A DNA stretch of 38,812 nucleotides from the sequence record DRR723986_28180, one strand, 5' to 3'. Under the pieces are notes generated by a model. That model was not told the DNA's origin, searched no databases, and saw only the letters and a program-made list of their open reading frames with translations. The position numbers and the translations under genes are program-made. Within the stretch, counting starts at the first letter, position 1; each line of letters starts with the position of its first letter. Positions 14,268 through 31,758 of the stretch are shown here, piece after piece.

Positions 14268-17125
14268 TAATTTTGCACAATATTACAATCTGTTCCTGCG
14301 TCAAATTCAGCGTTCACATTGACGTTTATCACGTTTAAGATTTGAGCTTGTAATGCAACTCCTCCATAAATATAAGAGGGTTTAGGAAATTTACCTGATA
14401 AAAGCATTGCCATAGAGCAATTAATCAAAACATAATCTTGCTTGACTTCTCCATCCACAACTTTCTTTACTCCCGCCGCCATGCCTCCATAAGCATATAA
14501 CTGTCCTTGTAAAAACCAATATTTTGCACCGAATGGACCCGTTTCTCCCTCGCAATGGTACGAAGGTGCATATTTATAAAGAGTTAAATCGAACCCACAA
14601 CCCATTCCTGCTGATGCATACGCCATCCATTTACCAGTAAAATTAATTTCACCGTCGAATCCAATATTTATACTCATTCCTGTACCGATTCCACTTCCAG
14701 AAGCAATTGACGCATTATCGCGTGTCGTTGTTATCCCTCCTAAAACAGAAGAAACTTGTGGTGGCGGCGGAGGCATAGGCGGCAAATTTTGTCCAAACAT
14801 GAAATAGGCATTAACAGTCACTAAATCAATGACATTTACTACGCATGGATTATTAGGTGTTCCTAAATGAAAAAACCAAAGAGAAGGAGAGATATACAAT
14901 TGTGACCAAATATTGGCATAAATTGCATCAGCAAAATCTGCTTCTGCCTGCATCTGCATATCAAAAATTTTATTCTGATTATCAAAAAATACGGCAACAG
15001 TGCCTTTTACATAGTTATCTGCTCCTGCTCGTTCAGATCTCTTTACCATCATGTATGCTTCACCAGCCAACAGCACCGAAGCTAAACCACCATTCGAATT
15101 GAATTGTATACTGAAAACCACATCTCCATTCAGCAGTTGTTCTTGCGTATAGACAAACTGAACCCCGGCCCTGAACCCTAGAGAGATTGTATTATCTGGA
15201 ATAAAAGTAGGGGACAATACCGAAGAATTTGTTCCCGCACTGGCTTGATCCATTATACTTTGAGCTGACCGGGTATCTCTCATGTGATAGGATATTCCAC
15301 CACTAATTTGAGTTAAGGTGACACCTGTATTACCTATTGGGATTGTAACAGGTACGGAGGCATCTACGGCAAAATATCTGTAACCATCAACTTTGCCAAA
15401 AATACATGACAAACCGATCCCTTCTATTACATCTCCTATTCCGACCTCTAAAAATCCTGCAAAGCCATCTCCATAAATTGGATCATCATATCTGAAAAAC
15501 ACACCCCCTTTAACGCTAATGGCTTGAGTATTAATATCAATGATTATCGAGTCAATTCTAAACGAATCGTATTCCCATTGCATCTTACCGTTTGAATCTT
15601 GTGAAATAGTTGACCAAACTTTGAATCCTCCTGCTACCCCAAAATTCTTTCCAATAGTTAAATTGGCCCCTATTCCCAACGCCACTTTACCTCCACCAAA
15701 ACCAAGTACTAGGTTATTCAAGGATATACTAAATCCTGACATTTTTGCACCAATTGAACCCACCAAAGAAAATTGACCCGCACTGATATAAGGAGACTCA
15801 GTAATCAAGGTGACATTTTGAAAACCAATCCCTTGAAAGGTCCCTTTTGGTGCGTCTAACTTCCAATCACCATTCAATACCAATTGAGGTTTGAACGAAT
15901 TATTTGTAACTGTCATTGTTAAAGCCGAACTTGGGTCAATTGTTAGCGTGGATTTGAATGCCCTTACCTCTGCTGATACGTTGGCTGTCATTGAAAAGCT
16001 GTAATCTAATTTTCCTGAGGATTCATTCTTTGAAAGCGCTGCCTGATAATCGATAGCTTTATCATCTAAAAAAGGAACAGCTAATTGTCCATTTATTTCG
16101 CCTTGTACAATCGAATTTGTTACAATATCTACAGCAATATGCTCTACTGAAAAACCCCAACCTCCTTCTACTTCACCAGTTGACAAAGCAAGTACATTAT
16201 TCGCACCAAATTCTCCGGTAACTCCAGCGTCATCTATGAAAAGATGATTTGCATAAATCTCAGTTCCCCCTCCATTTGGTGATAACTTGTTGGGTAATCC
16301 CACTGTAAAAGTTTCGACATAAAAACCGCGCCAAAGATCTATGTCTCCCCCATAAATCTGACCGAAATTTTGAGGCATTGGAGCTCCTTGCGGATTATAG
16401 TTATCACTCATATCAACTACAGCAGTTGAAATTTCAAAAGACACATCTTCCATCCCTTTTACGGCGAACTTTGTAAAACTAACCTCAGTCATGATATTAT
16501 TGACATCCTGAACATTCACTTCGAATTCTGCTTCTACCTTTGCTTTATCATCTTTCGGTATTAATATTTCTTTAGAAAATAAAAATTTACCATGCAGATT
16601 TACGGATTCAAATCCGTTACAATTCCAATTCACATAATTTGATCCATCACCCGGAATATAAAGTTCGGTGTTAGCACCAATTCGAATCGTATGTTCACTT
16701 ACTAGTTGGAGTTTGGACTGTGCGCCACCTATAACTCCTTCTGGATTAAACTTAATATCTTTTGCAGCAAAGGCCAAGGGATTCTCTGCATTGGGCAATT
16801 CAACTGACATATAAGCCGAAAAATATGCGCCATCCTTCAAAAAATACGCACTATCAATGCATATTACATAAAGATTCCCACCTATTTCTTTCGCCAATCC
16901 TATCGGCAATGAAGGAAAGTTGCTCACATCAAAATTCCCTATATGTTTATCTGGATCCATCACTGAATTCACTTTAGACATGACCTCATTATAGCGAGTC
17001 ATATCCGTGGCGGGTTCCAATCCTTGCGAAAAAATAGGTTTAAACACATAGGTATTAACACCTAGAAATGCAACAATCATCACCATCCGCTTGATAATTT
17101 GGGATGTTTTTATACATTTGAACAT
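14267..17125 (-). CDS. Large beta-strand-rich secreted protein of unknown function (toxin-locus accessory)
   Basis: 952-aa ORF with an N-terminal signal-like segment, Gly/aromatic amphipathic strands throughout and a PPMPPPPPQ stretch. Alternative starts are 17086 and 17080. Confidence 0.7.
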   Translation of the reverse strand: MFKCIKTSQIIKRMVMIVAFLGVNTYVFKPIFSQGLEPATDMTRYNEVMSKVNSVMDPDKHIGNFDVSNFPSLPIGLAKEIGGNLYVICIDSAYFLKDGAYFSAYMSVELPNAENPLAFAAKDIKFNPEGVIGGAQSKLQLVSEHTIRIGANTELYIPGDGSNYVNWNCNGFESVNLHGKFLFSKEILIPKDDKAKVEAEFEVNVQDVNNIMTEVSFTKFAVKGMEDVSFEISTAVVDMSDNYNPQGAPMPQNFGQIYGGDIDLWRGFYVETFTVGLPNKLSPNGGGTEIYANHLFIDDAGVTGEFGANNVLALSTGEVEGGWGFSVEHIAVDIVTNSIVQGEINGQLAVPFLDDKAIDYQAALSKNESSGKLDYSFSMTANVSAEVRAFKSTLTIDPSSALTMTVTNNSFKPQLVLNGDWKLDAPKGTFQGIGFQNVTLITESPYISAGQFSLVGSIGAKMSGFSISLNNLVLGFGGGKVALGIGANLTIGKNFGVAGGFKVWSTISQDSNGKMQWEYDSFRIDSIIIDINTQAISVKGGVFFRYDDPIYGDGFAGFLEVGIGDVIEGIGLSCIFGKVDGYRYFAVDASVPVTIPIGNTGVTLTQISGGISYHMRDTRSAQSIMDQASAGTNSSVLSPTFIPDNTISLGFRAGVQFVYTQEQLLNGDVVFSIQFNSNGGLASVLLAGEAYMMVKRSERAGADNYVKGTVAVFFDNQNKIFDMQMQAEADFADAIYANIWSQLYISPSLWFFHLGTPNNPCVVNVIDLVTVNAYFMFGQNLPPMPPPPPQVSSVLGGITTTRDNASIASGSGIGTGMSINIGFDGEINFTGKWMAYASAGMGCGFDLTLYKYAPSYHCEGETGPFGAKYWFLQGQLYAYGGMAAGVKKVVDGEVKQDYVLINCSMAMLLSGKFPKPSYIYGGVALQAQILNVINVNVNAEFDAGTDCNIVQN
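17091..17120 (+). promoter_or_regulatory. Bacteroidota housekeeping promoter (TTG-N19-TAnnTTTG) for the rightward operon
   Basis: TTG 17091-93, exactly 19 nt, then TACATTTG 17113-20. ATG follows at 17126. Confidence 0.7.
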
Positions 17126-20100
17126 ATGACTGTTGGTAAAAAGCCAAATATAGCAAAAGGAATTTATATCACATTTATCCTATCATTTTTTAGCCTTTTC
17201 GGGAAAGGTCAGGAATTGATAGAGATGAATATAACGCTAGAACCTGGTGGGAAAATTTATGATGTTGTCGAATCCCCATTTGGTGACGCCTACATTATTG
17301 TAGGAGATTTTGTCATGACATCCCCTTTTAGCAGGAAAAATTTTATTGTAGTTAATAAAAGTGATTTTACAGTAAATGATGACGCATTTTATCAACTACT
17401 AAATGGTGGTGCTGGTGTAAATGGTATAATTCGTTCGGTTGAAGTCGCAACAAGAAATATTACTGATGGGTTTGGGGCCATTATTGCTAAGCATAGGTAT
17501 ATATTCTTTGGTGGTGAATTCACTTGGATCAACGAAGGTGGAAACAATGATACCGTTAATGGTTTCGCAAGTTTTAGGTCAATAGAAAATTTCGGAGGCC
17601 CTTTTCCTGGTGTCAATGACTTCGCTCATCAAAATATCGCATTAGATTTTGATTATTCAGGAAATCCAAATAATGTAATTCAACCTGGTTGGAACCAGGG
17701 AATTTATGATATGATTGTGGATGAAGACTCGTTGTATATTTCTGGTGATTTTACGCTGGATCAATTTTCAACCCCCCCATTTGGTTCTTCTTTTGATATT
17801 GGTAAAATAAATATAAATGGATTTAATTATAGTCCATTCCCTCCTACGACTGGAGGACCTCTTGGAAATGTTACACCATTAAAATTCATCCATAAACATG
17901 ACGGATATATCTACACTGGAGGTGATGATGGAATCCAATCCCGAATTGCCCCTGATGGTAGCTCGGGCCCTACTCCAACACTGGTTATTTCTTCATTACC
18001 TAACAATACTTACAATGGCTTTTATGACGCTAAAACGTATCAAGACTCATTGCTTTTAATGCGAATTGACATGCATTCAGATGAAAACAGAGGAGATGAA
18101 GTGTACGTAATAAACGCAAATACAGGTATGTTTGAGGGTTCTCATCCAATCATGAACTACAGCCCAGACAATTTAAATTTAGCTAGTGTAACTCCATATA
18201 AAAATTGGCTTTATGGTTTTGATGAATCTCTCCTAAATCGCGGGCTAATTGGCTATAAAAATGATGGTATCCCATTCGTAAATGTTCAACCCATTAACTG
18301 GTCTGGACAAACGAACTTATTGACACTGGGCTCTTTTTCTCATATTGACGAAGCTGAATGTCAGTGGATAGAAGAAAACAGGTTTTTTGTATATAGTTCA
18401 GATTTAACTTCAACTTTTGGTCAAGCTAGAGATGGCTTTGCAATATATTGTCTTGAACCAGGAGATGCAGAACCCTTCATTTTATATGACTCAACAATTT
18501 GTCAAGGAGATACCATTACCTTTTCAGTTGGCGATTCTGATTTTGCAGATGGATACGAATGGTCTTATTCCGGAACGGGAATTGACCTCATTAATCAGGG
18601 ACCTCCAACTACCTTTCTCAGCACTGAAGCTCCAACAGTGAATATTGCTTTTTTTGACAATTTTACTCCTGGAACTTTAACTGTATCCCCATATTCAGAT
18701 TGTGATAGCAATACCATCAACTATAACCGTGTTTATTCAACTTCAGTATCATTAAATATCACCACCAACCCCCTACCCAATGCTATTGCAGGACTTGACA
18801 CTATACTAAACTGTTATAATGATACCATTAATTTATTTGGATTTTCGGACACTGCGAACGTGACTTATTCTTGGAACAAACTTAACACACCATTCATAGC
18901 TGACTCTTCAGGGCAAACACTGACGGTAACGGACTCAAACTACTATATTCTAACTGTTGAAAACCCTATAGGGTGTAAGGCTTTTGATACAGTTCGGGTA
19001 GATGAAGATAAATTAATGCCTACATTTGACCCTGTAACTTCAGGAATTCTAGGCTGCGGAGACACTATCTTTCTTTTAGGCCATTGTAATAATCTGACCG
19101 ACACACTTTCATGGTGGCAAAAATCGGGAAGTCCGGACACCTTAGTGAATCCTGCTCCGGCAACAACTGAAGGAAATTATGACTTTTATACCCAAAATCT
19201 ATCCAATGGATGTGTCGCTCAAATAATTCCGGCAATTTATGTTGGCGAAAACATAAATCCGCCAAATATTGAAATGGTAGGATATGCCTCTATTCCTGTG
19301 CTGACAGACCTATTTGTTTTGGATTGTAATAACCCTTCCGTTGATTTAAAACTCTATTCTGACACCTCTAATACAGTCTTGAATTACGTAGACAATAGTT
19401 ATAATAATCCAATTGGTGATAGTATTACAACTGATTCAGCTGGTACTTTTTATGTTCATGCAGTAAATCTAGATAACAACTGCGAAACCACAACTATTTT
19501 CACAATCGGCATAGATACCATAGCTCCCAATATCCTGTTCGATCCAATTACCGCCTTAAATTGCTCTAATGACTCTCTGATTTTAAATGGAAGCACCAAT
19601 TTTAATGACACAGTAATGACTTGGACAAATCCTTTAATTCCGCCTTCACAAAATCCGTTAACAGTGCATACCCCTGGATATTACACCTTAACTATTTCAA
19701 ACAATGCTAATGGTTGTTCTCGAGCAGACAGTATATTGATAATACAGGACAATTCAATTGACGTCATTGCATCAAACGATACAATTGTATGTGATCAGGC
19801 GGTGGCAACATTATTTGCAAACTATTTAGGAACAATTTCTGGAATTACTTATTTATGGAACAATGGTGCCACCACTCCTTCCACTACTTTTTTAGGAGGC
19901 GCAAACTCACAAGCCATTATAGAAATCAATGGGGATGGTGGTTGCTATGGCACAGACACAGTTCAAATTGATATCCCTCCTTTTCCGGTGGTTGATTTTA
20001 CTAGTTTTCAACCCTGTGGCGATCCCAATTCAGGATATATTGTCGCCAACCCGATTTCAGGCTGGACGCCTTTTGATTACTCTAAAGATAGTGGAATAAC

Positions 20101-20755
20101 CTATCAAACAAGTAATACCTTGACTAATCTGAGTATTGGTAATCATACAGTTTTTGTTAGAGATACACTAAATTGCGAGTATTCTTATCCTGTTTCGATT
20201 AGCGAAAACAGCAGTATTGCAACACCTCAATTTTTATTTTCAACTTATAATTATCAATCTGATACGGTTATTGTGGTCAATGTCAGCAGTCCCCCCACCG
20301 ATTCAGTGGATTGGTACTTTTCTCCTGAAGTAGTATTACTAGATGATAACAATGGTGATCCGATTATTATTCTTCCAGACACTGGAAGTTTCACTATCAC
20401 TATGGATGGTTATTATGGAACTTGCATTAGTTCAATTACAAAACAAATATTTGTTTCAGAGATTGACACGAATGCCGCAAACCCCTATAATGACAATGGT
20501 ATCAAATCTTTGACCTTATATCCTAACCCTACTAATGGGACTTTTACAGTTGACTTAGAATTCTTTGCTTCGCAATCTTGCACAATCGCAATTCAGGACA
20601 TGCCTGGTAACTTGATTGATCAAATTGATTACCCTGAAAGCATATCAATTTCTCAGAATTTTAGCATGGATTTATCGCTGAATAATGGCACCTATATTTT
20701 AAGGGTTTTCTCAGAGTTTGACAGCGCTTATATCACATTCATCTTGAACAGGTAG
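17126..20755 (+). CDS. T9SS type A sorting domain protein with Cys-containing Ig/SprB-like repeats (adhesin-like)
   Basis: Signal peptide GKG|Q, repeats of L-x-C-x-N...W...G-x-Y...NGC, an SprB-like GWTPFDYSKD..NLSIGNH motif, and C-terminal LYPNPTNG...GTYILRV. Confidence 0.85.
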   Translation: MTVGKKPNIAKGIYITFILSFFSLFGKGQELIEMNITLEPGGKIYDVVESPFGDAYIIVGDFVMTSPFSRKNFIVVNKSDFTVNDDAFYQLLNGGAGVNGIIRSVEVATRNITDGFGAIIAKHRYIFFGGEFTWINEGGNNDTVNGFASFRSIENFGGPFPGVNDFAHQNIALDFDYSGNPNNVIQPGWNQGIYDMIVDEDSLYISGDFTLDQFSTPPFGSSFDIGKININGFNYSPFPPTTGGPLGNVTPLKFIHKHDGYIYTGGDDGIQSRIAPDGSSGPTPTLVISSLPNNTYNGFYDAKTYQDSLLLMRIDMHSDENRGDEVYVINANTGMFEGSHPIMNYSPDNLNLASVTPYKNWLYGFDESLLNRGLIGYKNDGIPFVNVQPINWSGQTNLLTLGSFSHIDEAECQWIEENRFFVYSSDLTSTFGQARDGFAIYCLEPGDAEPFILYDSTICQGDTITFSVGDSDFADGYEWSYSGTGIDLINQGPPTTFLSTEAPTVNIAFFDNFTPGTLTVSPYSDCDSNTINYNRVYSTSVSLNITTNPLPNAIAGLDTILNCYNDTINLFGFSDTANVTYSWNKLNTPFIADSSGQTLTVTDSNYYILTVENPIGCKAFDTVRVDEDKLMPTFDPVTSGILGCGDTIFLLGHCNNLTDTLSWWQKSGSPDTLVNPAPATTEGNYDFYTQNLSNGCVAQIIPAIYVGENINPPNIEMVGYASIPVLTDLFVLDCNNPSVDLKLYSDTSNTVLNYVDNSYNNPIGDSITTDSAGTFYVHAVNLDNNCETTTIFTIGIDTIAPNILFDPITALNCSNDSLILNGSTNFNDTVMTWTNPLIPPSQNPLTVHTPGYYTLTISNNANGCSRADSILIIQDNSIDVIASNDTIVCDQAVATLFANYLGTISGITYLWNNGATTPSTTFLGGANSQAIIEINGDGGCYGTDTVQIDIPPFPVVDFTSFQPCGDPNSGYIVANPISGWTPFDYSKDSGITYQTSNTLTNLSIGNHTVFVRDTLNCEYSYPVSISENSSIATPQFLFSTYNYQSDTVIVVNVSSPPTDSVDWYFSPEVVLLDDNNGDPIIILPDTGSFTITMDGYYGTCISSITKQIFVSEIDTNAANPYNDNGIKSLTLYPNPTNGTFTVDLEFFASQSCTIAIQDMPGNLIDQIDYPESISISQNFSMDLSLNNGTYILRVFSEFDSAYITFILNR
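17145..17174 (-). promoter_or_regulatory. Candidate promoter for the leftward operon
   Basis: Minus strand ATG-N19-TATATTTG (CAAATATA at 17145-52). The -33 element has one mismatch to TTG. Confidence 0.5.
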
Positions 20756-20758
20756 CAA

Positions 20759-22507
20759 TTGAACTCAGCATTTAAATACTTAATAATCCTCCTTACATTG
20801 GCCACAAATGTTTATGGACAAAACCTAGATAAAATTGGGAAAGAAGGAATGTTAAAAGTTTCTGGCGGATTATCATTTAACACAGTTACCTACGCTCAAT
20901 CTGGATTGATTATTCCTACAAGAGATCCTTTTGCATGGTACGCATCTGGCAACCTTAATTTATCAATTTTAGATGTTTCCCTACCTTTCACATATACCTA
21001 TTCTAATTTAGCTGGAGGTAACTTCAGACAGCCTTTTAATCGAGCCGCAATTCATCCTTCATACAAATGGATCAAAACGCACATTGGACTTGTAAATATG
21101 AATTTTTCTCCATATACCCTTTCGGGTCATTTATTTTTAGGAGGAGGAATTGAACTCACACCGGGTAAATGGAAAATTCAAGCCATGGGCGGCAGGTTAC
21201 AGAAAGCTGTTCAATATGATGCGCTACTTAACAACATTGATCAGATGACTTATCAGCGATTTGGCTACGGTTTAAAAGTCGGGTATGAAAATAAAGGATA
21301 CAGCGGTGAGGTTATTTTGCTGAAAGCAAATGACCAATCTAATTCACTCAATTTCATCCCCTTAAACAGCACAGTAAGACCACAAGACAATTTGGTAATG
21401 AGCATTAAAGGGAAGGCAAAAATCATAAGTGGATTAAATATAGAGGCAGAATACGCTCTATCAGGATTAACGCAAAACGTAAATGAAATAAACGATTTAA
21501 ACTCAGGTTCACAAAACTTTATTCATCCACTAATCAATGGAAATGCAACCACCGATTTTTTTAACGCTTACAATGCATCAATTAAGTATAGTTTGAAATT
21601 TATGAAACTTGGATTTAAGTATGAGCATGTTGACCCGGGTTATTTAACTCTAGGAGGATACTATTTCAATAATGATATTGAGAACATCACTTTCACACCG
21701 GCCTTCACTCTATTCAAAAAAAAACTAAACATAGCATTAAATACCGGTTTCCAAAGAAACAATCTTGACAATACTAAAGAAGGTACAACAAACCGTTGGA
21801 TAGGAAGCGCTACAACTACTTATATTCCATCTTCGAAATTTGTCTTGACTGGGACATACTCAAACTTTAGCACGTTCACCCAAAACAGACCAGTATCTGA
21901 TCCTTTTTATTATCAGCCGGCAGACACATTAAATTTCTTTCAACTCACACAATCAGCATCTGGTATGATCTCTTATAATTTTGGAGAAAAGAGTATTAAA
22001 AGTGTCATTCAATTATTATATAATTATCAAGAATCTACAAATCTCTCTGGGAATGTCCAAAACGCAGGAGCTTTCGGAACAGGGGTCCAAACAAGTGAGG
22101 CAGGCATCCCTTCGAAAGTACACATGACAAATGCGTCCTATACTGCACAACTCGCTTCAATTGAATCTAATTTGACATTTGCCGCAAATATGAATAGAAC
22201 AAACATGTTAGATCAAAAATCTACTTTTTTTGGCCCTACTTTAAATTTTCAAAAAGGTCTGTTTAACAAAAAAGGAAATTTAGGTGCAGGAGTAACTTAC
22301 AACAGACAATACACAAATGCAGACTTAGCAAGTAACATCATGAATTATAGACTTTCTTTTCAGGTAAATCCGGAATTGAAAAACCCAAAATTTGGAAAAT
22401 TTGGAATTACGGCAAACGCCAATTTGATGCAACGTTTTGCTGTTTTAGCCACACAAACTAATGTGAGTGAATTAAATGTAACGATAAATTTGAATTATAA
22501 TTTTTAG
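20759..22507 (+). CDS. Outer-membrane beta-barrel protein
   Basis: Signal peptide VYG|Q, alternating amphipathic strands and C-terminal INLNYNF (BAM-type terminal Phe). TTG start lies 3 nt after the upstream stop. Confidence 0.75.
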   Translation: MNSAFKYLIILLTLATNVYGQNLDKIGKEGMLKVSGGLSFNTVTYAQSGLIIPTRDPFAWYASGNLNLSILDVSLPFTYTYSNLAGGNFRQPFNRAAIHPSYKWIKTHIGLVNMNFSPYTLSGHLFLGGGIELTPGKWKIQAMGGRLQKAVQYDALLNNIDQMTYQRFGYGLKVGYENKGYSGEVILLKANDQSNSLNFIPLNSTVRPQDNLVMSIKGKAKIISGLNIEAEYALSGLTQNVNEINDLNSGSQNFIHPLINGNATTDFFNAYNASIKYSLKFMKLGFKYEHVDPGYLTLGGYYFNNDIENITFTPAFTLFKKKLNIALNTGFQRNNLDNTKEGTTNRWIGSATTTYIPSSKFVLTGTYSNFSTFTQNRPVSDPFYYQPADTLNFFQLTQSASGMISYNFGEKSIKSVIQLLYNYQESTNLSGNVQNAGAFGTGVQTSEAGIPSKVHMTNASYTAQLASIESNLTFAANMNRTNMLDQKSTFFGPTLNFQKGLFNKKGNLGAGVTYNRQYTNADLASNIMNYRLSFQVNPELKNPKFGKFGITANANLMQRFAVLATQTNVSELNVTINLNYNF

Positions 22508-22510
22508 TGT

Positions 22511-22595
22511 GTTCTCGATACATCCGCCTGAGGCGAATATTCGAACAAACAAAAAATAAACTTCTTTTCTCCCACTTTGGTGGGATTAAAGGGGA
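22511..22595. repeat. Two short palindromic REP-like elements in the spacer before the toxin gene
   Basis: GTTCTCGATAC-ATCCGCC-tga-GGCGAAT-ATTCGAAC and TCCCAC-tttg-GTGGGA-TTAAAGGGG. Both are GC-rich hairpins in an AT-rich background. Confidence 0.45.
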
Positions 22596-22602
22596 TGACA
22601 AA

Positions 22603-25600
22603 ATGAAAAATTGGATAAGAAATACCGTATTGATGATTTTGCTGTTATTGGCAAGCATTGGTCGTGGACAAAATTATCCTGTTCAAGCATTTGTGCAATT
22701 GACACCTCCCTACTCTTCTTATTTACCTGATTATTCTGACCCATTCAACAATCAATTAAAAGTTCTTCTTACGCTAACAGATTTTTCTGTTCCATCTTAT
22801 CAAGTCAAATTAAGATTGCGTATTGAAGGACAGGGATATACCATTCAATCTGCAGATCTGACAAACTTCCCAGCTATATTGTTGAGCCCTGGTGTACCTG
22901 TAGAAATTTCGGGATCTGATCTGGCACCCTATTTAGCCACGCAAAATTTAATTTTCAATGGTATTGATGTCGCTAATTATGAGCAGAGCAAAATTCTTCC
23001 TGAGGGCCCTGCGACTATTTGTATTGAAGTGGTAGACATTCCAACGGGTGCGATTCTTGGAAACGAATCATGCGCTCAAAGTTGGTTTTACAAGCACCAA
23101 ACGCCTTTACTGAATTTACCAATTTGTGGTAGCGAAATCACTCCAACAAGCCCTCAATCAGTTATGTTCCAATGGACTCCAATGCACATGTCTATTGGGC
23201 AAAACACAAATTATCAATTCGAACTTTTCAAAGTATATCCAGAAGGAGATGACCCGAATGTTGTTGTAAGCAATCCATTTTTAAAAATAGCAGACATTAC
23301 AACAAGCAATACGTTTGTGTTGTATGACCTTACAAACACTCCATTAGAAATTGGAGAAGAATATGTTTGGCGGATTAGAGCCTCAGATATTACTGGTCGA
23401 GATTTGTTCAATAACAGCGGCTATTCGCAAGTATGCACGTTCACTTATGGCAATGTCGCTGGTTCTCTTTTAGATGGATATAATATTCAATTAAATTCAG
23501 TAGGCACGTCAAAAAGGCAAGGTAAAGCCACCTGGAACACTTCTGGAATTATTGATGAATACATTCTAGAAGTTAGAAAAACTGGAAACCCAAACTATCA
23601 ATGGTTCCCTTACCCTACAACCAACGGAGAATTAAAAGTTAATAATCTTGAACCAGAAACAGAATATGAATGCCGTGTTAAAGGAAAATTAGCTGAGGCC
23701 GAAACAGATTGGAGTAATACTTCTGTTTTTACAACCTTGGCTCAACAAGATTATGCTTGTAATAACGAAGCAATTCCTGGACTTCCACCAGTTTTTAAAC
23801 CAGCAAGCTCTGTAGGAACTGGAAATATTGTTCAAGTTGGGCAATTTGAAATGATAGTTGCAAGTGCTCAACCATCTGGGATTCAAGGATCTTTTACTGG
23901 CGAGGGAGTGATTTTTATTCCTTTCATGATGATGCCATTAGCTGTAGAATTTGAAAATGTCATGATTGATGAAAACCTTACTGTTCATGCCGGACGTGTA
24001 AACGCAATTACAAAAGGAGTTGCAGCTTGGGTTAATGAAGGAGTAACCCATTCCATCCCTGGCACCGTTGACAGCTATACTTCTGATCAACAAGATTCAA
24101 TCGTTGTCTTTTATTTTGGCAATGAATCATTAGAATTTGATTGGCCAACTCCAGGCAATACAGTAACGGTAACAGACGAATCTAACAAGCAATATGTTAT
24201 TGACGAATATGGTAATGTAACAGAGAGCTACATCATTGAATACGACAGTGAAAGCTTAGATGCAACAGCCAATTATCAGGTTATTTTCAAAGAAGCTTCT
24301 TCAGATCAATTTGGATTTGATGAAAAAGAATATGACCCTTGGACGCTTTACTATCCTTGTATCCTATTATCCGACAGCAGCAAATACTTCACATCATATA
24401 AGGCGATCAAGGATGGTCAAACGGACCAGGTTAAGGCAGAATTAATTTCTGATCAATCAGCCACCACCATCACCTTCAAAGATGAAGATGGGTCGACCTA
24501 TTCATCTTCAGTTGCTGGCAACACCTACACCATTGATTTAAACACTCTTAGTGACCCCGAATATCTATATGCCTATGATAATAATGGCTTAAAACTCGGA
24601 AAGCTGAACCTTATCGCCTATGAACAAAAAGATATAGATGTAGTTTTAGTTCCGGTTAACGGAGCAACGGCAACAAATGATGCAAATTTGACGAGCTATC
24701 TCAATAATATCTACAGAGCTGCTAACCTTAATTTCAACATCTCAACTGATTCGAATTTTCAATCGACATTTGATATAGATGGTAACGGCTTGCAAAGTGC
24801 ATCAGATGAAGAGCTGAGTAATTACTCAACTGAAATGAAAGCCTTACGTGACGAGTATTTTGACGCTAATCCAAGTGCGAATAAAGATGCCATGTATCTG
24901 TTCGTGGTTCCAAGTTTTGATGATCCTACAGCTGACGGATATATGGTGAGAGGCAAATCAATGGGCTTTATAAAATCAGGGGCAGCCGATAGAACTTATG
25001 CACATGAGTTGGGTCATGGTTTTCAGCTGAAGCACAGCTTTCCAGCAAATGTAAGCGGCTCAACAACAAATTTAATGGATTACAGCAATGGAGAAGATTT
25101 AGCAGGTTTTCAATGGAAAGGAATCCGTGACTTTTCTTTTGCATTCAGTTTTTTGGATGATGCTGAGGATGGGCAATACGCGGTTCAAACTTCATCCAAC
25201 AACAGGTCTGTTTACAAATGGTATAATGAAAATACGATTACCAGCTATGGCTTTAATTCCATTTACACACCAGGTGGAGATATTATTACCTTAAATAACC
25301 CTTCTTCGATTGACAATATTTCATTTGATGTATTGACCGGTGGAGTTGCTAGCTTTCATTACGGATCAAACCAATATTACGCCCAATATTCAATAATTGA
25401 GGGGGTCGGAGATTTAAAATTTATTGGTTATTTTATTTTTGAATATCAGGATATTTTAAGAAATGTACTAGCTGCTGACGACCCAACTTTTACAGATGTG
25501 TCGCAACCTTTGCCTGGTTCGATCACTTTGCAAGCTAACGAGCTCAAGAACAATCATGAAGCCTATTTTTCTGATTACAGCTTTGGTCAAACTGGCGCCA

Positions 25601-28293
25601 TAGCACTTGGAATGATTGCAGGTTCAGATGAAGATTGCCAACGAGAGATTGTAAAATGGAATGATAACAGTAATAGTGTTGGAACAACCGAATTTGATCC
25701 AGACGGAATTTATCAATATCCACTGAAGAAAGATTTTAACGCATTGTTGGCAACAGATATCAGCTCCATGAATCCAGTTCGACTTGATAGCACAGTGATT
25801 TCTGATCCTTCTGTTAACCAAGTAAAAAAAGATCTGATGTGTGAACTCATACAAATCTATGGCAAGCCTAGAGGTTGGGCAAGAGAATATGTGGAGCAGA
25901 ATTTGGCAATCAATAATATGTCAACCATTTATGAATTCGTCAATCAATCAGAAGACTTTTTAGATTATATCGTTGAAACGGCAAAAATTCATGAGCAAAT
26001 TGGAGATGATGTTTTTGTTCAATATTCAATTGAAATAAAAAAGCCTTACCTCACATTTATTGAAAGCTTGTTAACTGGAACTTTAGAGAAAAAATATGGT
26101 GATGAAAATTTGTCATGGGCAGATAAAAAACTCAAATTCCAGAATTTAGCAAACAACCTCAGGATTAAGCTAGACAAAGTAAAGCTAGCAAAACCAGGAG
26201 GGATGGACGATTATGATATAGTTTTAGGCATTCTCAGTGAATTTACGGATAATGAACTGACTTTGCTATCAACTACAGACAGATTAAAGTGCTTATCATT
26301 CCTGACTTCTGACTGGATGATATCCGATAAATCAGAATCTATTGCCAATCGTTTATTGGCTACATCACCTACTACTGAGGCTATCGCTTTGCTAGATGGA
26401 TTAAGGCAAGTACCCTATTTTGAAACAGGAGAAGCTACCTTATTTGAATGGCTGATTTATAGAATTGACTTTTCTGACTATACAGAATTTTGGCAAATTA
26501 TCCTTGAAAAGTATCAGTATTACGTTGATGATAAGTCAGGAGCGGCTACAGATGTTTACTTTATTCAATACGGTTCAGATAACAGTGGTGTAAATGGAGA
26601 TTGCGCAGATGTTGGTGATTGTATTTTAACAGATTTTGAGTTCAGGGCAAATAACAAAGTTTTTTATTCATTTGATGTGGTGACTGGATGCAATACCAGT
26701 TCTACAGGTTCTGGATCATACGGAAACAATACAAATACCTTCAACAATGTTTATGGAGAAACAGTAAGCTATGAAATTGACATTTATGAACCGGTGTTAT
26801 TTTTGAATAATTCAGATTTAAATTTAGTTGGTGATGCACTGCCTACTGGCGATTTTATTCCGGCAGTTCCAGCTATCTTTTTAAAATATGTGTATGACAA
26901 AGAATTTGAGCAAAGTACTTATGATATAATTGAAGTTGTTGCGGTAACAGCTGATTTTTTGACACTGGCTACTGGGCCTGGCCTAATTTGGAAAGCAGTT
27001 AGGACAGGCAAAGAATTGTTAGTGGTTTATGAAGGGATGCAAGTGGTAGCATCAACGGCTAATTTAGCGTTAAATGCAAGCGGGTCAGAATCTGACTTGG
27101 TAAATGCGTTTAATTTAATTGTAGGTGGCTGGGGAATTATTAAAGGTGGTACTAAACTGGTGAACAAATGGACGGATTTAAAGTCAGTTACTGATGAATC
27201 TACTGGGTTTAAACCGGTTTCGCAGGCGGATGCACAAGGGTATATTACTAAATATGATGATTATGCTAAAAATAGTACACCTACACCTGAGCAGACTAAG
27301 TTGTATGATTATTTGAAGGCGAAGGTGGGATTAAACAATTTTTCTTGGGTGGATAACTTATCTGGAAATGGCTGGACTGAAGCATTGAAAAACGCCTTGA
27401 AAGCTGATTTGAATTCTAACCCAAACTTTTTTGGCAATCTAAACAATGTGGATGGTGCTGAGGCGTGGAAGCTGGTTAGAGAATCAATCGGAAATTCTAC
27501 AAATAATGGCTTTACAAAATTTGCTGTTGATCCGAAAACCTTAGAGAAGGTATCTGAAATTATGCAGTCAGGGTCTAGTTTGCGAAATAAGTTTCCAAAT
27601 ACTTGGGAACAAGAATTTTCAGATATCTTGTACGCCAACAAAGATATTGGTTGCGCAACTTGTGATGGAACCGGAATTACGAGAGTTCCTAAAATGGATG
27701 AAATGTTGGATAACGTAGAACATATTATGCAGTTCGGAAACAAGCCGGGTTTCAATACGATAATGACTAACCTAAAAAGCAATATTCACAATCGAGATGG
27801 CATTCATCATATGATCACTTATATGAAGAATAATCAAGGAGAGTTTGCTAATGTTATTGAGTTTGAGTTTCGTTATGCAGATGACATAATGAACAAAGCG
27901 GATGTTTTGGTTGGCAATGTGAAGTATGAATTTAAAAGTTGGACTCCAGATATACCAAATCCATGGAACTCATTTTTTAGTGGTTCAGGAAGTTCTTATA
28001 CGCAAATGATCCGATACTTTGAAAATTCTACTAATATAAATCAAGTCAAATATGTATTCAATAGTCTGAAAGCTACGGAAAGTCAAGTTAAAAATGCTTT
28101 TAAGAGTTTGTTTATTAGCAGAGCAGATGACATGTTCAAACCCATTAGTCAAGGAGGACTTGGTGAAGCAAAAATGAAACAGCTCTTCGAGTTTGACAAT
28201 TTTCAATTTCAAAATGCAACTGAATTCAAAGGCTTATTTAATAATAATCAGACGTTCAGAGATAATGCTTTGAAATTTATAAAAGTTGATTAA
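22603..28293 (+). CDS. Putative polymorphic toxin: TANFOR-like domain, Fn3, zinc metallopeptidase, hydrophobic helices, C-terminal PD-(D/E)xK nuclease-like domain
   Basis: Signal peptide GRG|Q and YPVQAFVQLTPPYSSYLPDY (TANFOR-like). Also NLEPETEYECRV (Fn3), HELGHGFQLKH plus NLMDYS, CATC, and E..KADVLVGNVKYEFKSW. Real start is ATG 22603. Confidence 0.8.
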   Translation: MKNWIRNTVLMILLLLASIGRGQNYPVQAFVQLTPPYSSYLPDYSDPFNNQLKVLLTLTDFSVPSYQVKLRLRIEGQGYTIQSADLTNFPAILLSPGVPVEISGSDLAPYLATQNLIFNGIDVANYEQSKILPEGPATICIEVVDIPTGAILGNESCAQSWFYKHQTPLLNLPICGSEITPTSPQSVMFQWTPMHMSIGQNTNYQFELFKVYPEGDDPNVVVSNPFLKIADITTSNTFVLYDLTNTPLEIGEEYVWRIRASDITGRDLFNNSGYSQVCTFTYGNVAGSLLDGYNIQLNSVGTSKRQGKATWNTSGIIDEYILEVRKTGNPNYQWFPYPTTNGELKVNNLEPETEYECRVKGKLAEAETDWSNTSVFTTLAQQDYACNNEAIPGLPPVFKPASSVGTGNIVQVGQFEMIVASAQPSGIQGSFTGEGVIFIPFMMMPLAVEFENVMIDENLTVHAGRVNAITKGVAAWVNEGVTHSIPGTVDSYTSDQQDSIVVFYFGNESLEFDWPTPGNTVTVTDESNKQYVIDEYGNVTESYIIEYDSESLDATANYQVIFKEASSDQFGFDEKEYDPWTLYYPCILLSDSSKYFTSYKAIKDGQTDQVKAELISDQSATTITFKDEDGSTYSSSVAGNTYTIDLNTLSDPEYLYAYDNNGLKLGKLNLIAYEQKDIDVVLVPVNGATATNDANLTSYLNNIYRAANLNFNISTDSNFQSTFDIDGNGLQSASDEELSNYSTEMKALRDEYFDANPSANKDAMYLFVVPSFDDPTADGYMVRGKSMGFIKSGAADRTYAHELGHGFQLKHSFPANVSGSTTNLMDYSNGEDLAGFQWKGIRDFSFAFSFLDDAEDGQYAVQTSSNNRSVYKWYNENTITSYGFNSIYTPGGDIITLNNPSSIDNISFDVLTGGVASFHYGSNQYYAQYSIIEGVGDLKFIGYFIFEYQDILRNVLAADDPTFTDVSQPLPGSITLQANELKNNHEAYFSDYSFGQTGAIALGMIAGSDEDCQREIVKWNDNSNSVGTTEFDPDGIYQYPLKKDFNALLATDISSMNPVRLDSTVISDPSVNQVKKDLMCELIQIYGKPRGWAREYVEQNLAINNMSTIYEFVNQSEDFLDYIVETAKIHEQIGDDVFVQYSIEIKKPYLTFIESLLTGTLEKKYGDENLSWADKKLKFQNLANNLRIKLDKVKLAKPGGMDDYDIVLGILSEFTDNELTLLSTTDRLKCLSFLTSDWMISDKSESIANRLLATSPTTEAIALLDGLRQVPYFETGEATLFEWLIYRIDFSDYTEFWQIILEKYQYYVDDKSGAATDVYFIQYGSDNSGVNGDCADVGDCILTDFEFRANNKVFYSFDVVTGCNTSSTGSGSYGNNTNTFNNVYGETVSYEIDIYEPVLFLNNSDLNLVGDALPTGDFIPAVPAIFLKYVYDKEFEQSTYDIIEVVAVTADFLTLATGPGLIWKAVRTGKELLVVYEGMQVVASTANLALNASGSESDLVNAFNLIVGGWGIIKGGTKLVNKWTDLKSVTDESTGFKPVSQADAQGYITKYDDYAKNSTPTPEQTKLYDYLKAKVGLNNFSWVDNLSGNGWTEALKNALKADLNSNPNFFGNLNNVDGAEAWKLVRESIGNSTNNGFTKFAVDPKTLEKVSEIMQSGSSLRNKFPNTWEQEFSDILYANKDIGCATCDGTGITRVPKMDEMLDNVEHIMQFGNKPGFNTIMTNLKSNIHNRDGIHHMITYMKNNQGEFANVIEFEFRYADDIMNKADVLVGNVKYEFKSWTPDIPNPWNSFFSGSGSSYTQMIRYFENSTNINQVKYVFNSLKATESQVKNAFKSLFISRADDMFKPISQGGLGEAKMKQLFEFDNFQFQNATEFKGLFNNNQTFRDNALKFIKVD

Positions 28294-29312
28294 TGAAAAA
28301 TATAAAGCAAATTGACAAAGTTAACCACTGTGTTATTGACGACAATTTTGAAATCATTTGGTCGGACACAAAAATAACTGTAAATCAAGAAGAAATAATC
28401 AATGGAGAGATCTCTAGTTTCCATAGAGTTAATGACATCATTTTTATTCAAATGAACAGTGGAAGATACAGCATTGTCTATGATTTGATTACCAAATTGA
28501 AAAAAAAAATTGACTACGCTGGTAAAAACATTGGTGAAGAGGTGATATTGATTGGAAAATGGAATGATAGTTATACCGAAAGAATAACAACTGCAATTAA
28601 ATGGCAAAATGGGGCAGAATTATGGCAATCAAAAAGAGTTTATTTTCAGTGTGAGTTTATGGATGAAAATTTTATTTCAGTCGATAAAGGAGTAATATCT
28701 AAAAACGAATTATCAAGTTCTAAACCCTATTGGAACTTTGATTTAAACCAGCTGGGCAATTATAAAAACCAAGCAAATGAAGAGTGTTCCTACGAAGTCA
28801 AACATTTCATTGGAGTCTTAGATGATAAATTAATTGCACAGCTGTCGAATGCTACTTTTATATTTTTAAGTTTGGACAAGGGGGAGTTAATTGAAAAAAT
28901 AAATTTAAATGAATCTTTCGCCTTACCAAGTCCAGTTTTTTATGATGACGAGTTTAAAGCTCACTTGGTGGATATGGAGTTATTTTGGCTTTCTAATCAA
29001 AGACTTTTAAAAATAAATTTATCAAGTTTTCAGATTTCGGTAGTAAAAGACTATTTCACTGACCCCAAAGACCTTCAATTCCGTTTCATGAGCAACACCT
29101 ACTTTGATGGAAATATTTATTTTGTAGCAGATTTTGGTTGGCAGTATGTTACACCATCTTATGTCGGAGTGATGGATAAGGAATCAGGGGAAGTACTTTG
29201 GTATGAACAATTGAAGAACACGGGAGGTTTACCCGAAGCACCTCAAGCGACAGAAAATAGACTTTATGTAAGAACATCTAAAGGAGTTCTTCACGTCTTT
29301 GGGCAAGAATAA
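28293..29312 (+). CDS. Putative cognate immunity protein (cytoplasmic, PQQ-like beta-propeller motifs)
   Basis: Start overlaps the toxin stop (TAATG), and there is no signal peptide. Propeller-like motifs NGAELW, DKESGEVLW and RLYVRT. Confidence 0.65.
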   Translation: MKNIKQIDKVNHCVIDDNFEIIWSDTKITVNQEEIINGEISSFHRVNDIIFIQMNSGRYSIVYDLITKLKKKIDYAGKNIGEEVILIGKWNDSYTERITTAIKWQNGAELWQSKRVYFQCEFMDENFISVDKGVISKNELSSSKPYWNFDLNQLGNYKNQANEECSYEVKHFIGVLDDKLIAQLSNATFIFLSLDKGELIEKINLNESFALPSPVFYDDEFKAHLVDMELFWLSNQRLLKINLSSFQISVVKDYFTDPKDLQFRFMSNTYFDGNIYFVADFGWQYVTPSYVGVMDKESGEVLWYEQLKNTGGLPEAPQATENRLYVRTSKGVLHVFGQE

Positions 29313-29385
29313 CAGCACCAACTTCCGCTCGATAATATCACGTGTACACTAAACCACTTCTCCGAATTTCGGCATATTCAACCTA

Positions 29386-29499
29386 ATGTCTGGAATAATA
29401 AATACCATAAACCTTTGGATCGCGAAAGGACGATTTGACTATGTTCTTAAAGTCAGTCAAAAGATTGATTACAAGAAATAGACAAAATTTATTGGCTCT
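29386..29499 (+). pseudogene. Truncated paralog of the 29561 gene (immunity remnant)
   Basis: WIAKGRFDYVLKVSQKIDYKK*TKFIGS aligns ungapped to WIAKEAFENISKIKQKLDYNKWVDFIES (14/28 identical). TAG at 29479 replaces the Trp codon. Confidence 0.8.
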
Positions 29500-29560: not shown

Positions 29561-29992
29561 ATGAAAATCTCGGACCCCTGGATAGCTAAAGAAGCTTTTG
29601 AAAACATATCGAAAATAAAACAAAAACTGGACTACAATAAATGGGTTGATTTTATAGAATCAAATCTAGACTATTTTACATGGCTCGAAAACACTGACAA
29701 GGGAAAAAAAACTATGAAGAACATTAACCTTATACCAGAAGGTTTTAAAAAAGCCGTTATTGAAGGACATAAAAAGAAACAAGTCTGCGCAGAATTTAAT
29801 GATCGAAAGGGGTATCATGAGGTTATAATAAAATTCAACGAGGAGTTAGGCGTTCTTGGTACAACATTTCAAAAGCCTATTACAAAATTTCATCTTAAGT
29901 GGCTAATTGAAATGGCCGAGCATTTAGACGCATTTGTTTTGAACAATGGCAGGGTAATTATTGATGAAAGTTTTGTAAAAAAAATGAGCTGA
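29561..29992 (+). CDS. Hypothetical protein, putative orphan immunity protein
   Basis: Small, AT-rich cytoplasmic ORF downstream of the toxin/immunity pair on the same strand. Confidence 0.6.
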   Translation: MKISDPWIAKEAFENISKIKQKLDYNKWVDFIESNLDYFTWLENTDKGKKTMKNINLIPEGFKKAVIEGHKKKQVCAEFNDRKGYHEVIIKFNEELGVLGTTFQKPITKFHLKWLIEMAEHLDAFVLNNGRVIIDESFVKKMS

Positions 29993-30137
29993 CTATGATT
30001 CCCCTCTCCGCAACAACTAAGCTGCTACACCCTTTCAAACAATCAAATAAACAAATCATTATCTCCCAAAAACCAGCATAAACACCTACTAAAAAATACT
30101 TGCTATTTTTGAGCCTTGAATTAATCCAAAACAATAA

Positions 30138-31757
30138 ATGAAAAAAATCTTCTTTCTACTTACAGCCTTACTGTCTTTAAACACTTACGCCCAAAACGCA
30201 TCTTTTGAATGGAGTAGCATTCAATCTAACAGTGATTTAAAATTAAAACCAAGAGAATTTATTGGTGAAACAAGCACTCACTTTTTCAATCTTAGACATA
30301 ATATGGGGGCTGGTGATGTCGGTTACGCATCAGAATTCAGTATGGATGTTACCAACAAGGAAACTCAACGAACTGAAATTGTTTATTTAAATATTCGACC
30401 TGTAGGTGAATTTGGTTCTCGAATGGTTCACTCAATGATGACCATAAAAGACGAACTCTATGTGTTGAGACAAATTAAAAACAACAAGGACAAACACTTG
30501 AGTTTAACAGTAAATGCTGTAGATCTCAATGGAAAGATTGGGGAAAGCAAAGTTTTAGCTGAACATAATTTTGAGAAAATATTATTCCCGGGTAAATTCA
30601 GTACTGCATTGAGTGCTGACAAAAGTAAATTGGCGATTTTAAAATTGCCCAATTATAATAAAAAAGCTACTGATTATAAAGCCGTGGTTTACTGCTACAG
30701 CACATCTGATTGGAGCTTGGTGTATCAAGAAGAAGTTAACTTAGAAATTCCCCCTCAAAAATCTCCTGATTTTCAGCTAAGCGCATCAAACAATGGCGAT
30801 ATTTTATTTGGACTTGTCCACAAGTATGAAAAAAAGCAACGGAATGACTTTTACGCCTATAATGCAACAAAAAAAGAATTCACGCATTTGGACCTTGGTT
30901 TCGGTTTAAGCATTAATAGCCAGCAGTTCAGTATTAAAGTACTAGCTGATGGTAATTTCAATATTGTAGGCTCCTATTTTGATGAAGCAATTGGTAAAGG
31001 AGTGGCTGGCACATCTGAAAGTCAAGTAAATGGTATTTTCTCTGCTTACATAGCAGAAGCTAAAATGGTCAACAACGTCACCTTTCACCCATGGACAAAA
31101 GAACTTTTGAAATTCAAATTGGGCGACATTAAAAAACTAGATGAAACGAAAGATTTTGCAAAGGAAAATATAACGGGGCACCACATCATGAATGATGGCT
31201 CGGTAGTCTTGGAGTTTTCAAATGCTCGCGTAAGTAGTCAAACCATGGGCTCAGGTGAAAGTGCTTACAAGGTTTATTGGATGCGTTTTAGGCAAATTAA
31301 AATGTGGTCAATAAATCCAAAAACGGGTCAAATCAACTGGACGCTTTTACACGAAATCGATCAAGACACAGAAAATAAAACAAGAAATGCAGGACCGGCA
31401 TTCTTTGGACAGCAGACTTTCACTGATGGAATTAACATTTATTTCGTTTATAACAATCAGGCAATACTGAGTGGAAAATGGACCGAATCAGATGGAACCG
31501 CATATAGTAAAAAGGAAATATTTGGAAATTATGGCGGAGCGGCTACCTTCTTGAAAACCATCAATCAAAATGGCGAATTACAGAACCCTAACTTAAAATT
31601 TGGAACACCTCTGAAAGATATGTATACAGGACGTATTACAAGTCCAATGATTTTTGACGCAGATTTCTCGGCTAAATTGGAAGACGGTTTTCTAATTCGT
31701 TGCATGAATGGTAACGGGGCTAATTTCAGCTATGGAAGAATGAAGGTTGTGCAATAA
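30138..31757 (+). CDS. Secreted hypothetical protein (beta-rich)
   Basis: Signal peptide TYA|Q, a TATTTTTG -7 element at 30104-11, and no T9SS CTD. Confidence 0.7.
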   Translation: MKKIFFLLTALLSLNTYAQNASFEWSSIQSNSDLKLKPREFIGETSTHFFNLRHNMGAGDVGYASEFSMDVTNKETQRTEIVYLNIRPVGEFGSRMVHSMMTIKDELYVLRQIKNNKDKHLSLTVNAVDLNGKIGESKVLAEHNFEKILFPGKFSTALSADKSKLAILKLPNYNKKATDYKAVVYCYSTSDWSLVYQEEVNLEIPPQKSPDFQLSASNNGDILFGLVHKYEKKQRNDFYAYNATKKEFTHLDLGFGLSINSQQFSIKVLADGNFNIVGSYFDEAIGKGVAGTSESQVNGIFSAYIAEAKMVNNVTFHPWTKELLKFKLGDIKKLDETKDFAKENITGHHIMNDGSVVLEFSNARVSSQTMGSGESAYKVYWMRFRQIKMWSINPKTGQINWTLLHEIDQDTENKTRNAGPAFFGQQTFTDGINIYFVYNNQAILSGKWTESDGTAYSKKEIFGNYGGAATFLKTINQNGELQNPNLKFGTPLKDMYTGRITSPMIFDADFSAKLEDGFLIRCMNGNGANFSYGRMKVVQ

Positions 31758-31758
31758 A

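Follow-up and report, generated by a model that had tools for sequence, protein, structure and literature searches.

A probable BaCT nuclease toxin with a candidate immunity gene in a swappable cassette of sequence record DRR723986_28180

What kind of protein ends at position 28293 of sequence record DRR723986_28180, and does the gene that starts on that same base protect its producer? The stretch of DNA analyzed here, called the window throughout, is 38,812 bases long (36% G+C) and carries a long open reading frame (ORF) on the plus strand, 22507-28293, whose last part had been proposed to be a DNase toxin of the restriction-endonuclease fold. The comparisons below show that this C-terminal domain is, by homology, a BaCT (Bacteroidetes C-terminal Toxin) domain, and in all probability residues 1625-1928 act as an antibacterial, Mg-dependent PD-(D/E)xK DNase, the C-terminal warhead of a TANFOR-class Bacteroidota toxin, accompanied by a likely immunity protein encoded immediately downstream. 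Counted from GTG 22507 the ORF encodes 1928 aa (P0001), and all residue numbers follow this count; the true start is likely ATG 22603, for a protein of 1896 aa whose product begins with the signal-peptide-like sequence MKNWIRNTVLMILLLLASIGRGQ (MKNW...). The features on which the argument turns are the following.

22603..28293, plus strand: polymorphic toxin gene, 1896 aa, collinear with the Olleya protein WP_101018251.1 (P0008)
27379..28290, plus strand: BaCT toxin domain, residues 1625-1928 (family profile match at residues 1625-1927, E 4.5e-94)
27652..27663, plus strand: conserved CxxC (CATC), a loop in the helical N-terminal module of BaCT, from the conservation of C1716/C1719
27784..28059, plus strand: PD-(D/E)xK catalytic core (helix, three strands, helix, strand 4), from AlphaFold2 secondary structure and conservation
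28293..29312, plus strand: candidate immunity gene (BaCTic-like), 339 aa, PQQ/beta-propeller-like, with a TAATG overlap and homologues next to BaCT
25174..29490, plus strand: swappable cassette made up of the last 1039 aa of the toxin, the immunity gene and ~180 bp, from comparison with contig C239 of genome G001

The C-terminal domain, its family and its predicted fold

BaCT and its immunity protein BaCTic were described by Jana, Salomon and Bosis (2020, Life Sci Alliance, PMC7073777). The domain is defined there as ~300 aa at the C-terminus of Bacteroidetes proteins, with TANFOR, fibronectin type III (Fn3), PT-HINT or DUF4157 in front, and with an invariant (D/E)xK in a PD-(D/E)xK-like setting. 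The pair tested in that study came from Flavobacterium hydatis (BaCT, WP_081912444.1 residues 1542-1841; BaCTic, WP_035620349.1): the toxin domain was toxic in Escherichia coli, induced the SOS response and degraded DNA both in vivo and, in a Mg-dependent manner, in vitro; the substitutions E1724A and K1726A abolished these effects; and the downstream protein bound the toxin and rescued cells (PMC7073777).

The link from the window to this family runs through a protein of Olleya sp. Bg11-27, WP_101018251.1, which matches the last 330 aa of the window toxin at E 1.3e-55 and 49% identity (query residues 43-275 against its residues 1646-1889) and which carries the annotation "1646-1947: BaCT" in Supplemental Data 1, with a further entry in Supplemental Data 3 (PMC7073777). 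The two proteins are also collinear as wholes: residues 38-1013 align at 27% identity (E 2e-73), and a second stretch, from residue 1427 to at least ~1764, aligns at 32% (E 4e-60). We assign the window's domain to BaCT because this relative is listed as such and because the whole protein is collinear with it. In keeping with the definition, the (D/E)xK is present as E1808 and K1810 on strand 3 of the predicted core, and the domain is C-terminal in a protein that looks secreted, with Fn3 in front and a signal-peptide-like N-terminus. The best relatives of the window copy are from Crocinitomicaceae and Saprospiraceae metagenome-assembled genomes (MAGs).

A full HMMER scan with the last 330 aa against 1.84 billion representatives (clusters at 50% identity) recovered 127 at E <= 1e-3, with 51 at E <= 1e-10 and 13 at E <= 1e-30. 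Twenty-three of the 127 have at least 1000 aa, 11 have 500-999 aa, and the remaining 93, many of them fragments at contig ends, are smaller still. The domain envelope ends no more than 20 residues from the C-terminus in 103 of the 127, and in the window it ends at the last residue. Of the 28 longer matches that were scanned, two have PT-HINT immediately ahead of the domain and eight have Fn3. The family is sparse, with BaCT in 4 of 401 sampled Bacteroidota genomes.

Database models of known families do not recognize the domain. Searches of the last 330 aa against Pfam, NCBIfam, PADLOC and PDB sequences returned noise only, a profile of 58 members reached at best E 0.013 against PDB sequences (a de novo designed protein), and no Pfam family matched more than three of the 58 members when these were searched one by one. 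The Pfam Tox-REase families matched none of the 58 at E <= 0.05, nor the window's domain at E <= 0.1; a search for Tox-REase-5 (PF15648) in 201 genomes of the class gave no match and gave none in 14 control genomes either, hence it is uninformative. The suggestion that the family might be unnamed thus holds for Pfam, NCBIfam and PADLOC and fails for the literature, where it has been called BaCT since 2020 (PMC7073777); our literature search found no other paper that deals with it.

The catalytic residues lie exactly where the original prediction had put them, with D at 27901 (D1799), E at 27928 (E1808) and K at 27934 (K1810), and the CATC at 27652-27663 (C1716 to C1719) as well as AEAWK, EFEFRY and YTQMIRY (residues 1651, 1785 and 1831) were likewise found as described. 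One correction concerns the start given for the feature, 27300, which is one base out of frame in a reading that contains stops; the frame starts at 27301. The bare pattern D-x(6-12)-[DE]xK is no more frequent than expected by chance: P0001 contains 8 instances, and 1000 shuffles average 6.2. Extended by a QxxxY behind it, the pattern has a single instance, at 1799, but 14.5% of shuffles contain one or more. We regard the motif at 1799 as real because its residues are conserved and because of where they stand in the predicted structure. Seventy-six domain regions, from the query and from library matches covering at least 150 query residues (shorter matches being excluded), were aligned with MAFFT; D1799 is found in 76/76 sequences, E1808 in 75/76, K1810 in 76/76, Q1833 in 75/75 and Y1837 in 70/75. 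The CxxC is kept almost as strictly (C1716 in 58/59 and C1719 in 57/59), and W1654 of AEAWK is present in 49/58. These two are the only conserved cysteines in the alignment, and it holds no conserved histidine nearby that could complete a zinc site.

A divergent BaCT-like subfamily (P0023, P0031, P0039, P0078, P0107 and P0117) combines the CxxC module with a core of the form D-x(8-12)-E-x-K-N-K. In these proteins the single-sequence HMMER alignment was confined to the N-terminal module (query residues 30-145), and a separate adaptor domain was considered for matches limited to this range; it was rejected, the divergent D..ExK core lying behind the module. Since the divergent core (D..ExKNK) follows the same CxxC module, we take the module and the nuclease core to belong together.

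AlphaFold2, run with 58 sequences, gave a confident model of the 330-aa tip (predicted local distance difference test [pLDDT] 92.9, predicted template modeling score [pTM] 0.89) and a model of the same topology for the core alone (pLDDT 93.1, pTM 0.88). The predicted core is alpha-beta-beta-beta-alpha-beta, as in nucleases of the restriction-endonuclease fold, with D1799 on strand 2, E1808 and K1810 on strand 3, and Q1833 and Y1837 on the next helix. In the numbering of the 330-aa query, helices extend up to residue 182 and are followed by strands at 185-191, 199-204 (D201) and 207-212 (E210, K212), a helix at 230-241 (Q235, Y239), a strand at 249-253 and further helices; the CxxC sits between the helices 102-112 and 132-145.

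When the 330-aa model was compared with solved structures by VIA-align, designed helical repeats that align to its N-terminal half made up most of the matches (best Z 5.0), and the core was therefore folded alone. When the core model was compared with 48,161 chains, the best rows were Upx (9wuf_A; Z 5.8, root mean square deviation [rmsd] 3.2, 108 aligned) and an XisH-like protein (2okf_B; Z 5.8, rmsd 3.6, 107 aligned), with BstEII (9ibq_A) at Z 5.3, rmsd 3.6 and 114 aligned. Among the best 50 rows, which were those considered, 31 have titles that name a restriction enzyme or another nuclease, and we take these 31 to have the PD-(D/E)xK fold; they include BglII, PspGI, SfsA, NucS, Can2, Card1, TnsA, Hjc, Vsr, RecE and Cas4, as well as the toxins CdiA-CT (4g6v) and TseT (7dym). 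Because so many of the best 50 rows are such nucleases, though each row is weak, the predicted model supports a PD-(D/E)xK fold with no close solved relative.

The downstream gene and the toxin-immunity cassette

The start codon at 28293 (ATG) shares one base with the toxin gene's TAA stop (TAATG), so that the 339-aa gene lies within the 50 bp downstream, on the same strand, that are set for BaCTic genes. Its product matches PF13360 (PQQ_2) weakly and has 26 homologues of 313-351 aa, 13 of which carry a precomputed PF13360 match; a profile search for remoter homologues returned the same 26 proteins only. Both the length and the pyrroloquinoline quinone (PQQ)-like annotation agree with BaCTic proteins of 302-390 aa listed in PMC7073777.

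Related loci came from three reference genomes (L002, L003 and L004) and, in five cases, from the 401-genome Bacteroidota sample. In a Crocinitomicaceae MAG (L002), a BaCT with 80% identity to that of the window is followed by a gene with 54% identity to the 339-aa gene; in a Saprospiraceae locus (L003) the corresponding values are 37% and 44%. In L004 the matched BaCT ORF lies at a contig end, and a second BaCT ORF of 609 aa is the one counted. All nine BaCT ORFs with visible downstream DNA directly precede an ORF of 328-364 aa, and a profile of 27 immunity sequences matches seven of these nine downstream ORFs at E <= 1e-3 (for example, L010 at 2e-22, L011 at 4e-18, L012 at 1.8e-6 and L004 at 9.8e-4). 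Judged by these sequence comparisons, the gene at 28293-29312 is likely the immunity gene of the toxin; the overlap, the homologues beside BaCT in other loci and the profile matches all favor the earlier choice of this gene as the rescue partner.

Two of the related loci show further genes of interest. In L002 a second gene (L002:1825-2571) directly follows the BaCT immunity gene and by eye resembles window toxin residues ~440-520 (VQVGQFEM...), an arrangement whose sequence suggests tandem toxin genes. In the Saprospiraceae locus L004 (L004:1583-6411), an array consists of an immunity-like ORF (E 8e-16), the 609-aa BaCT ORF, a 337-aa ORF (E 9.8e-4) and a 150-aa BaCT ORF at the contig end.

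The toxin end and the downstream gene are exchanged as a unit between strains. Of the words sampled from the window, 32% also occur in G001, the nearest of the genomes compared, and on its contig C239 the toxin gene is 99% identical over residues 1-889 and then continues into an unrelated end of 357 aa. DNA identity between the two resumes at window position 29491 (97%), and the last 1030 aa of the window toxin were not found anywhere in G001, which is 93% complete. Because identity with G001 breaks off after residue 889 and returns at position 29491, we interpret 25174-29490 as a replaceable cassette of toxin end and immunity gene. The G+C content drops to 0.31-0.33 in the tip of the toxin and in the immunity gene, and the G-C skew reaches ~0.27 at 26500-28000 in the distal toxin gene, a shift in composition consistent with a cassette of different history.

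Several ORFs in and around the two versions of the cassette were also noted. The alternative 357-aa toxin end (L001:4072-5145, on G001 C239) has no Pfam match at E <= 0.1 and is followed by a 206-aa ORF (L006:649-1269); the two may be another, unnamed toxin-immunity pair. A 143-aa ORF (window 29561-29992) stands right behind the cassette in each of its two versions; it is 97% identical in G001, has no match in Pfam, NCBIfam or PADLOC, and is perhaps an orphan immunity gene, perhaps unrelated. Farther on, a 539-aa ORF with a signal-peptide-like start (window 30138-31757) has no family match and is absent from G001, in which identity stops at 30059 and resumes at 31758, leaving an indel between the strains beside the toxin cassette.

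The front of the toxin and its upstream neighbors

The part of the toxin that precedes the BaCT domain, and the two genes upstream of it, contain these features.

22675..23040, plus strand: TANFOR-like N-terminal domain, below threshold (TIGR02542, E 0.022)
23530..23727, plus strand: fibronectin type III domain, residues 342-407 (PF00041, E 5e-6)
24667..25053, plus strand: zincin-like metallopeptidase region, residues 721-849 (weak PF13688 Reprolysin_5 match, E 0.0022)
17099..20755, plus strand: type IX secretion system (T9SS) substrate gene (PF18962, E 1.3e-8 at residues 1140-1206; TIGR04183, E 2.3e-5)
20759..22507, plus strand: ORF of 582 aa that separates the T9SS substrate gene from the toxin gene, without a match in Pfam, NCBIfam or PADLOC

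TIGR02542 is the sole match in the TANFOR region and covers model positions 2-128 of 145. The same model is matched by the relatives P0008 (6.8e-4) and P0090 (3.2e-7), and from residue 38 onward the window toxin is collinear with the Olleya protein that PMC7073777 lists as TANFOR.

Within the zincin-like region a HELGH motif is found at residue 833 (25003-25017), and the left edge of the cassette follows just after this region. The pattern HE[LIVMFA]GH is present in 8 of the 23 BaCT-bearing representatives of at least 1000 aa, as AHELGHG in every case. From these sequence features we infer that the HExxH region may be a releasing peptidase in the sense used by Zhang et al. (2012, PMC3482391). 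Farther toward the toxin domain, a hydrophobic, glycine-rich stretch (VVAVTADFLTLATGPGLIW...IVGGWGIIKGG) at 26900-27150, residues ~1465-1545, aligns with the Olleya protein and could be a membrane-interacting pre-toxin segment.

Published loci have similar surroundings. PMC7073777 reports the same kind of T9SS-substrate neighbor beside TANFOR/BaCT genes and, in some BaCT loci, upstream proteins of 593-815 aa. Export of such toxins by the T9SS is a hypothesis of that paper.

Relation to known systems, proposed mechanism and alternatives

Like the BaCT/BaCTic systems described in PMC7073777, the window's system has a ~300-aa domain at the extreme C-terminus of a protein with a signal peptide and Fn3 (these proteins being of ~1,600-2,200 aa), an invariant ExK in a PD-(D/E)xK-like core, and a domain that is also found after PT-HINT; the gene of ~300-390 aa a few bases downstream, annotated as PQQ-like in some cases, and the T9SS-substrate gene upstream are shared as well. 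It differs from them in that the window copy comes from another lineage and its TANFOR match is below threshold. Neither the CxxC module nor the Q/Y helix nor the swap-point HExxH comes up in the main text of PMC7073777, and for this reason we count all three as additions and not as contradictions.

Among other families, Tox-REase-1 to -10 are described by Zhang et al. (PMC3482391) as restriction-endonuclease-fold C-terminal domains of polymorphic toxins. The Tox-REase signature named in the original prediction proved apt in one respect: the motif order of Tox-REase-6 ("E, D, ExK, Q, Y") and Tox-REase-1 ("E, D, ExK, Q"), as given there, is the order seen in the window's domain. It did not carry over to family membership, however, as there is no Pfam Tox-REase match; BaCT also has an extra helical CxxC module of ~160 aa, and the immunity protein listed there for Tox-REase-1 and -6 is Imm49, in contrast to the propeller-like protein of the window's BaCT. 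PoNe (polymorphic nuclease effector) is likewise an antibacterial PD-(D/E)xK DNase that also occurs on a TANFOR-containing protein, but the authors of PMC7073777 treat it as a separate family, against which BaCTic gives no protection, and we set it apart on the strength of their description. Solved nucleases (BstEII 9ibq, XisH-like 2okf, SfsA 4da2, Can2 8q3y, CdiA-CT 4g6v and TseT 7dym) share the core fold with the window's domain at Z 3.9-5.8 (99-114 aligned, rmsd 3.2-4.5 A), but their sequence identity to it is only 7-18% and Z stays below 6.

By analogy with the tested member, the toxin would act as follows. A Sec signal, as read from the sequence, would take it to the periplasm, and the TANFOR-like/Fn3 front part would serve export or display, possibly with the T9SS as hypothesized in PMC7073777. 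The warhead would then reach the cytoplasm of a competitor, where D1799, E1808 and K1810 would hold a metal and the attacking water, with Q1833 and Y1837 on the next helix, and chromosomal DNA would be cut. The producer would be protected by the translationally coupled 339-aa propeller-like protein, which would bind the toxin domain, and the toxin C-terminus and immunity gene would pass between strains as one cassette. Support for the proposed C-terminal PD-(D/E)xK DNase toxin comes from the invariant D..ExK..QxxxY, the predicted core, the C-terminal position and the BaCT homology at E 1.3e-55.

Several observations weigh against this reading. The DNase function is carried over by analogy from one tested member, the F. 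hydatis BaCT, to which the window is linked through WP_101018251.1. The TANFOR match lies far under its cut-off (14.6 bits against 67), and neither PF18962 nor TIGR04183 finds a T9SS sorting domain in the toxin. Two of the nine downstream ORFs miss the immunity profile (L014, E 0.039; L013, E 2.2), and none of the accessions recovered for homologues of the window's immunity protein appears in the tables of PMC7073777; the two misses fit, because BaCTic proteins are diverse according to the same paper. As for structure, the fold prediction bore out the expected restriction-endonuclease-like core and the Foldseek search against the PDB did not, giving 0 matches at E <= 0.001 for both models, and every VIA Z-score is below 6, under the tool's trust level for a single match.

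Some PD-(D/E)xK toxins cut RNA, such as CdiA-CT of Burkholderia pseudomallei, and the CdiA-CT of 4g6v is presumably a tRNase. A toxin of the same fold with RNA (tRNA or rRNA) as its substrate has to be weighed for the window as well, given that the catalytic motif does not tell the substrate and that CdiA-CT/CdiI (4g6v_A) is among the structural matches (core Z 4.6, rmsd 4.5, 109 aligned; Z 3.2 in another VIA run). That match is no better than many DNase matches, however, and the window's domain is 49% identical over the matched stretch to a listed BaCT, a family whose tested member induces SOS and breaks down genomic DNA both in vitro and in vivo (PMC7073777), so that an RNA substrate has only a slim chance. 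We give a slimmer chance still to a nuclease, secreted or displayed on the surface, that serves to consume or remove DNA outside the cell, with a downstream gene unrelated to immunity. The signal peptide, Fn3 and peptidase-like parts would suit it, being found in many Bacteroidota surface enzymes, as would a T9SS substrate for a neighbor. Yet the downstream gene overlaps the toxin's stop and travels with BaCT across families (44% identity beside a BaCT only 37% identical), the two are swapped together between near-identical strains, relatives carry PT-HINT pre-toxin domains, and binding and rescue have been shown for one family member (PMC7073777).

The remaining alternative is that the motif arose by chance in a C-terminal region without catalytic function. 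Two results speak for it, namely that the bare pattern is no rarer in the protein than in shuffled sequence and that Foldseek gave no significant match in the PDB, but residues invariant in 75-76 of 76 relatives, a confident model that sets them in canonical positions and the essential ExK of the tested member (PMC7073777) leave it next to no chance. If the domain is the BaCT nuclease that we propose, it might further be a two-part warhead, in which the CxxC helical module (~160 aa) would respond to redox state or to a metal and control the translocation or activation of the nuclease, and the HExxH zincin at the swap point would free the 1039-aa variable part; the cysteines could form a disulfide outside the cell that is reduced in the target. 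We regard this elaboration as speculative and rather unlikely.

Since BaCT had already been named and tested by experiment, the window toxin is an additional member of a known family, and the result mostly serves annotation; how the BaCT family works stays as already known. With no Pfam, NCBIfam or PADLOC model for the domain, genome pipelines label such genes "fibronectin type III domain-containing protein". The analysis provides the first structural model of BaCT, with a canonical nuclease core and a conserved helical module that bears the CxxC. It also extends the range of the family to Crocinitomicaceae- and Saprospiraceae-like lineages, with BaCT in at least 127 clusters at 50% identity, and brings to light two near-identical strains that differ by a cleanly bounded toxin-immunity cassette.

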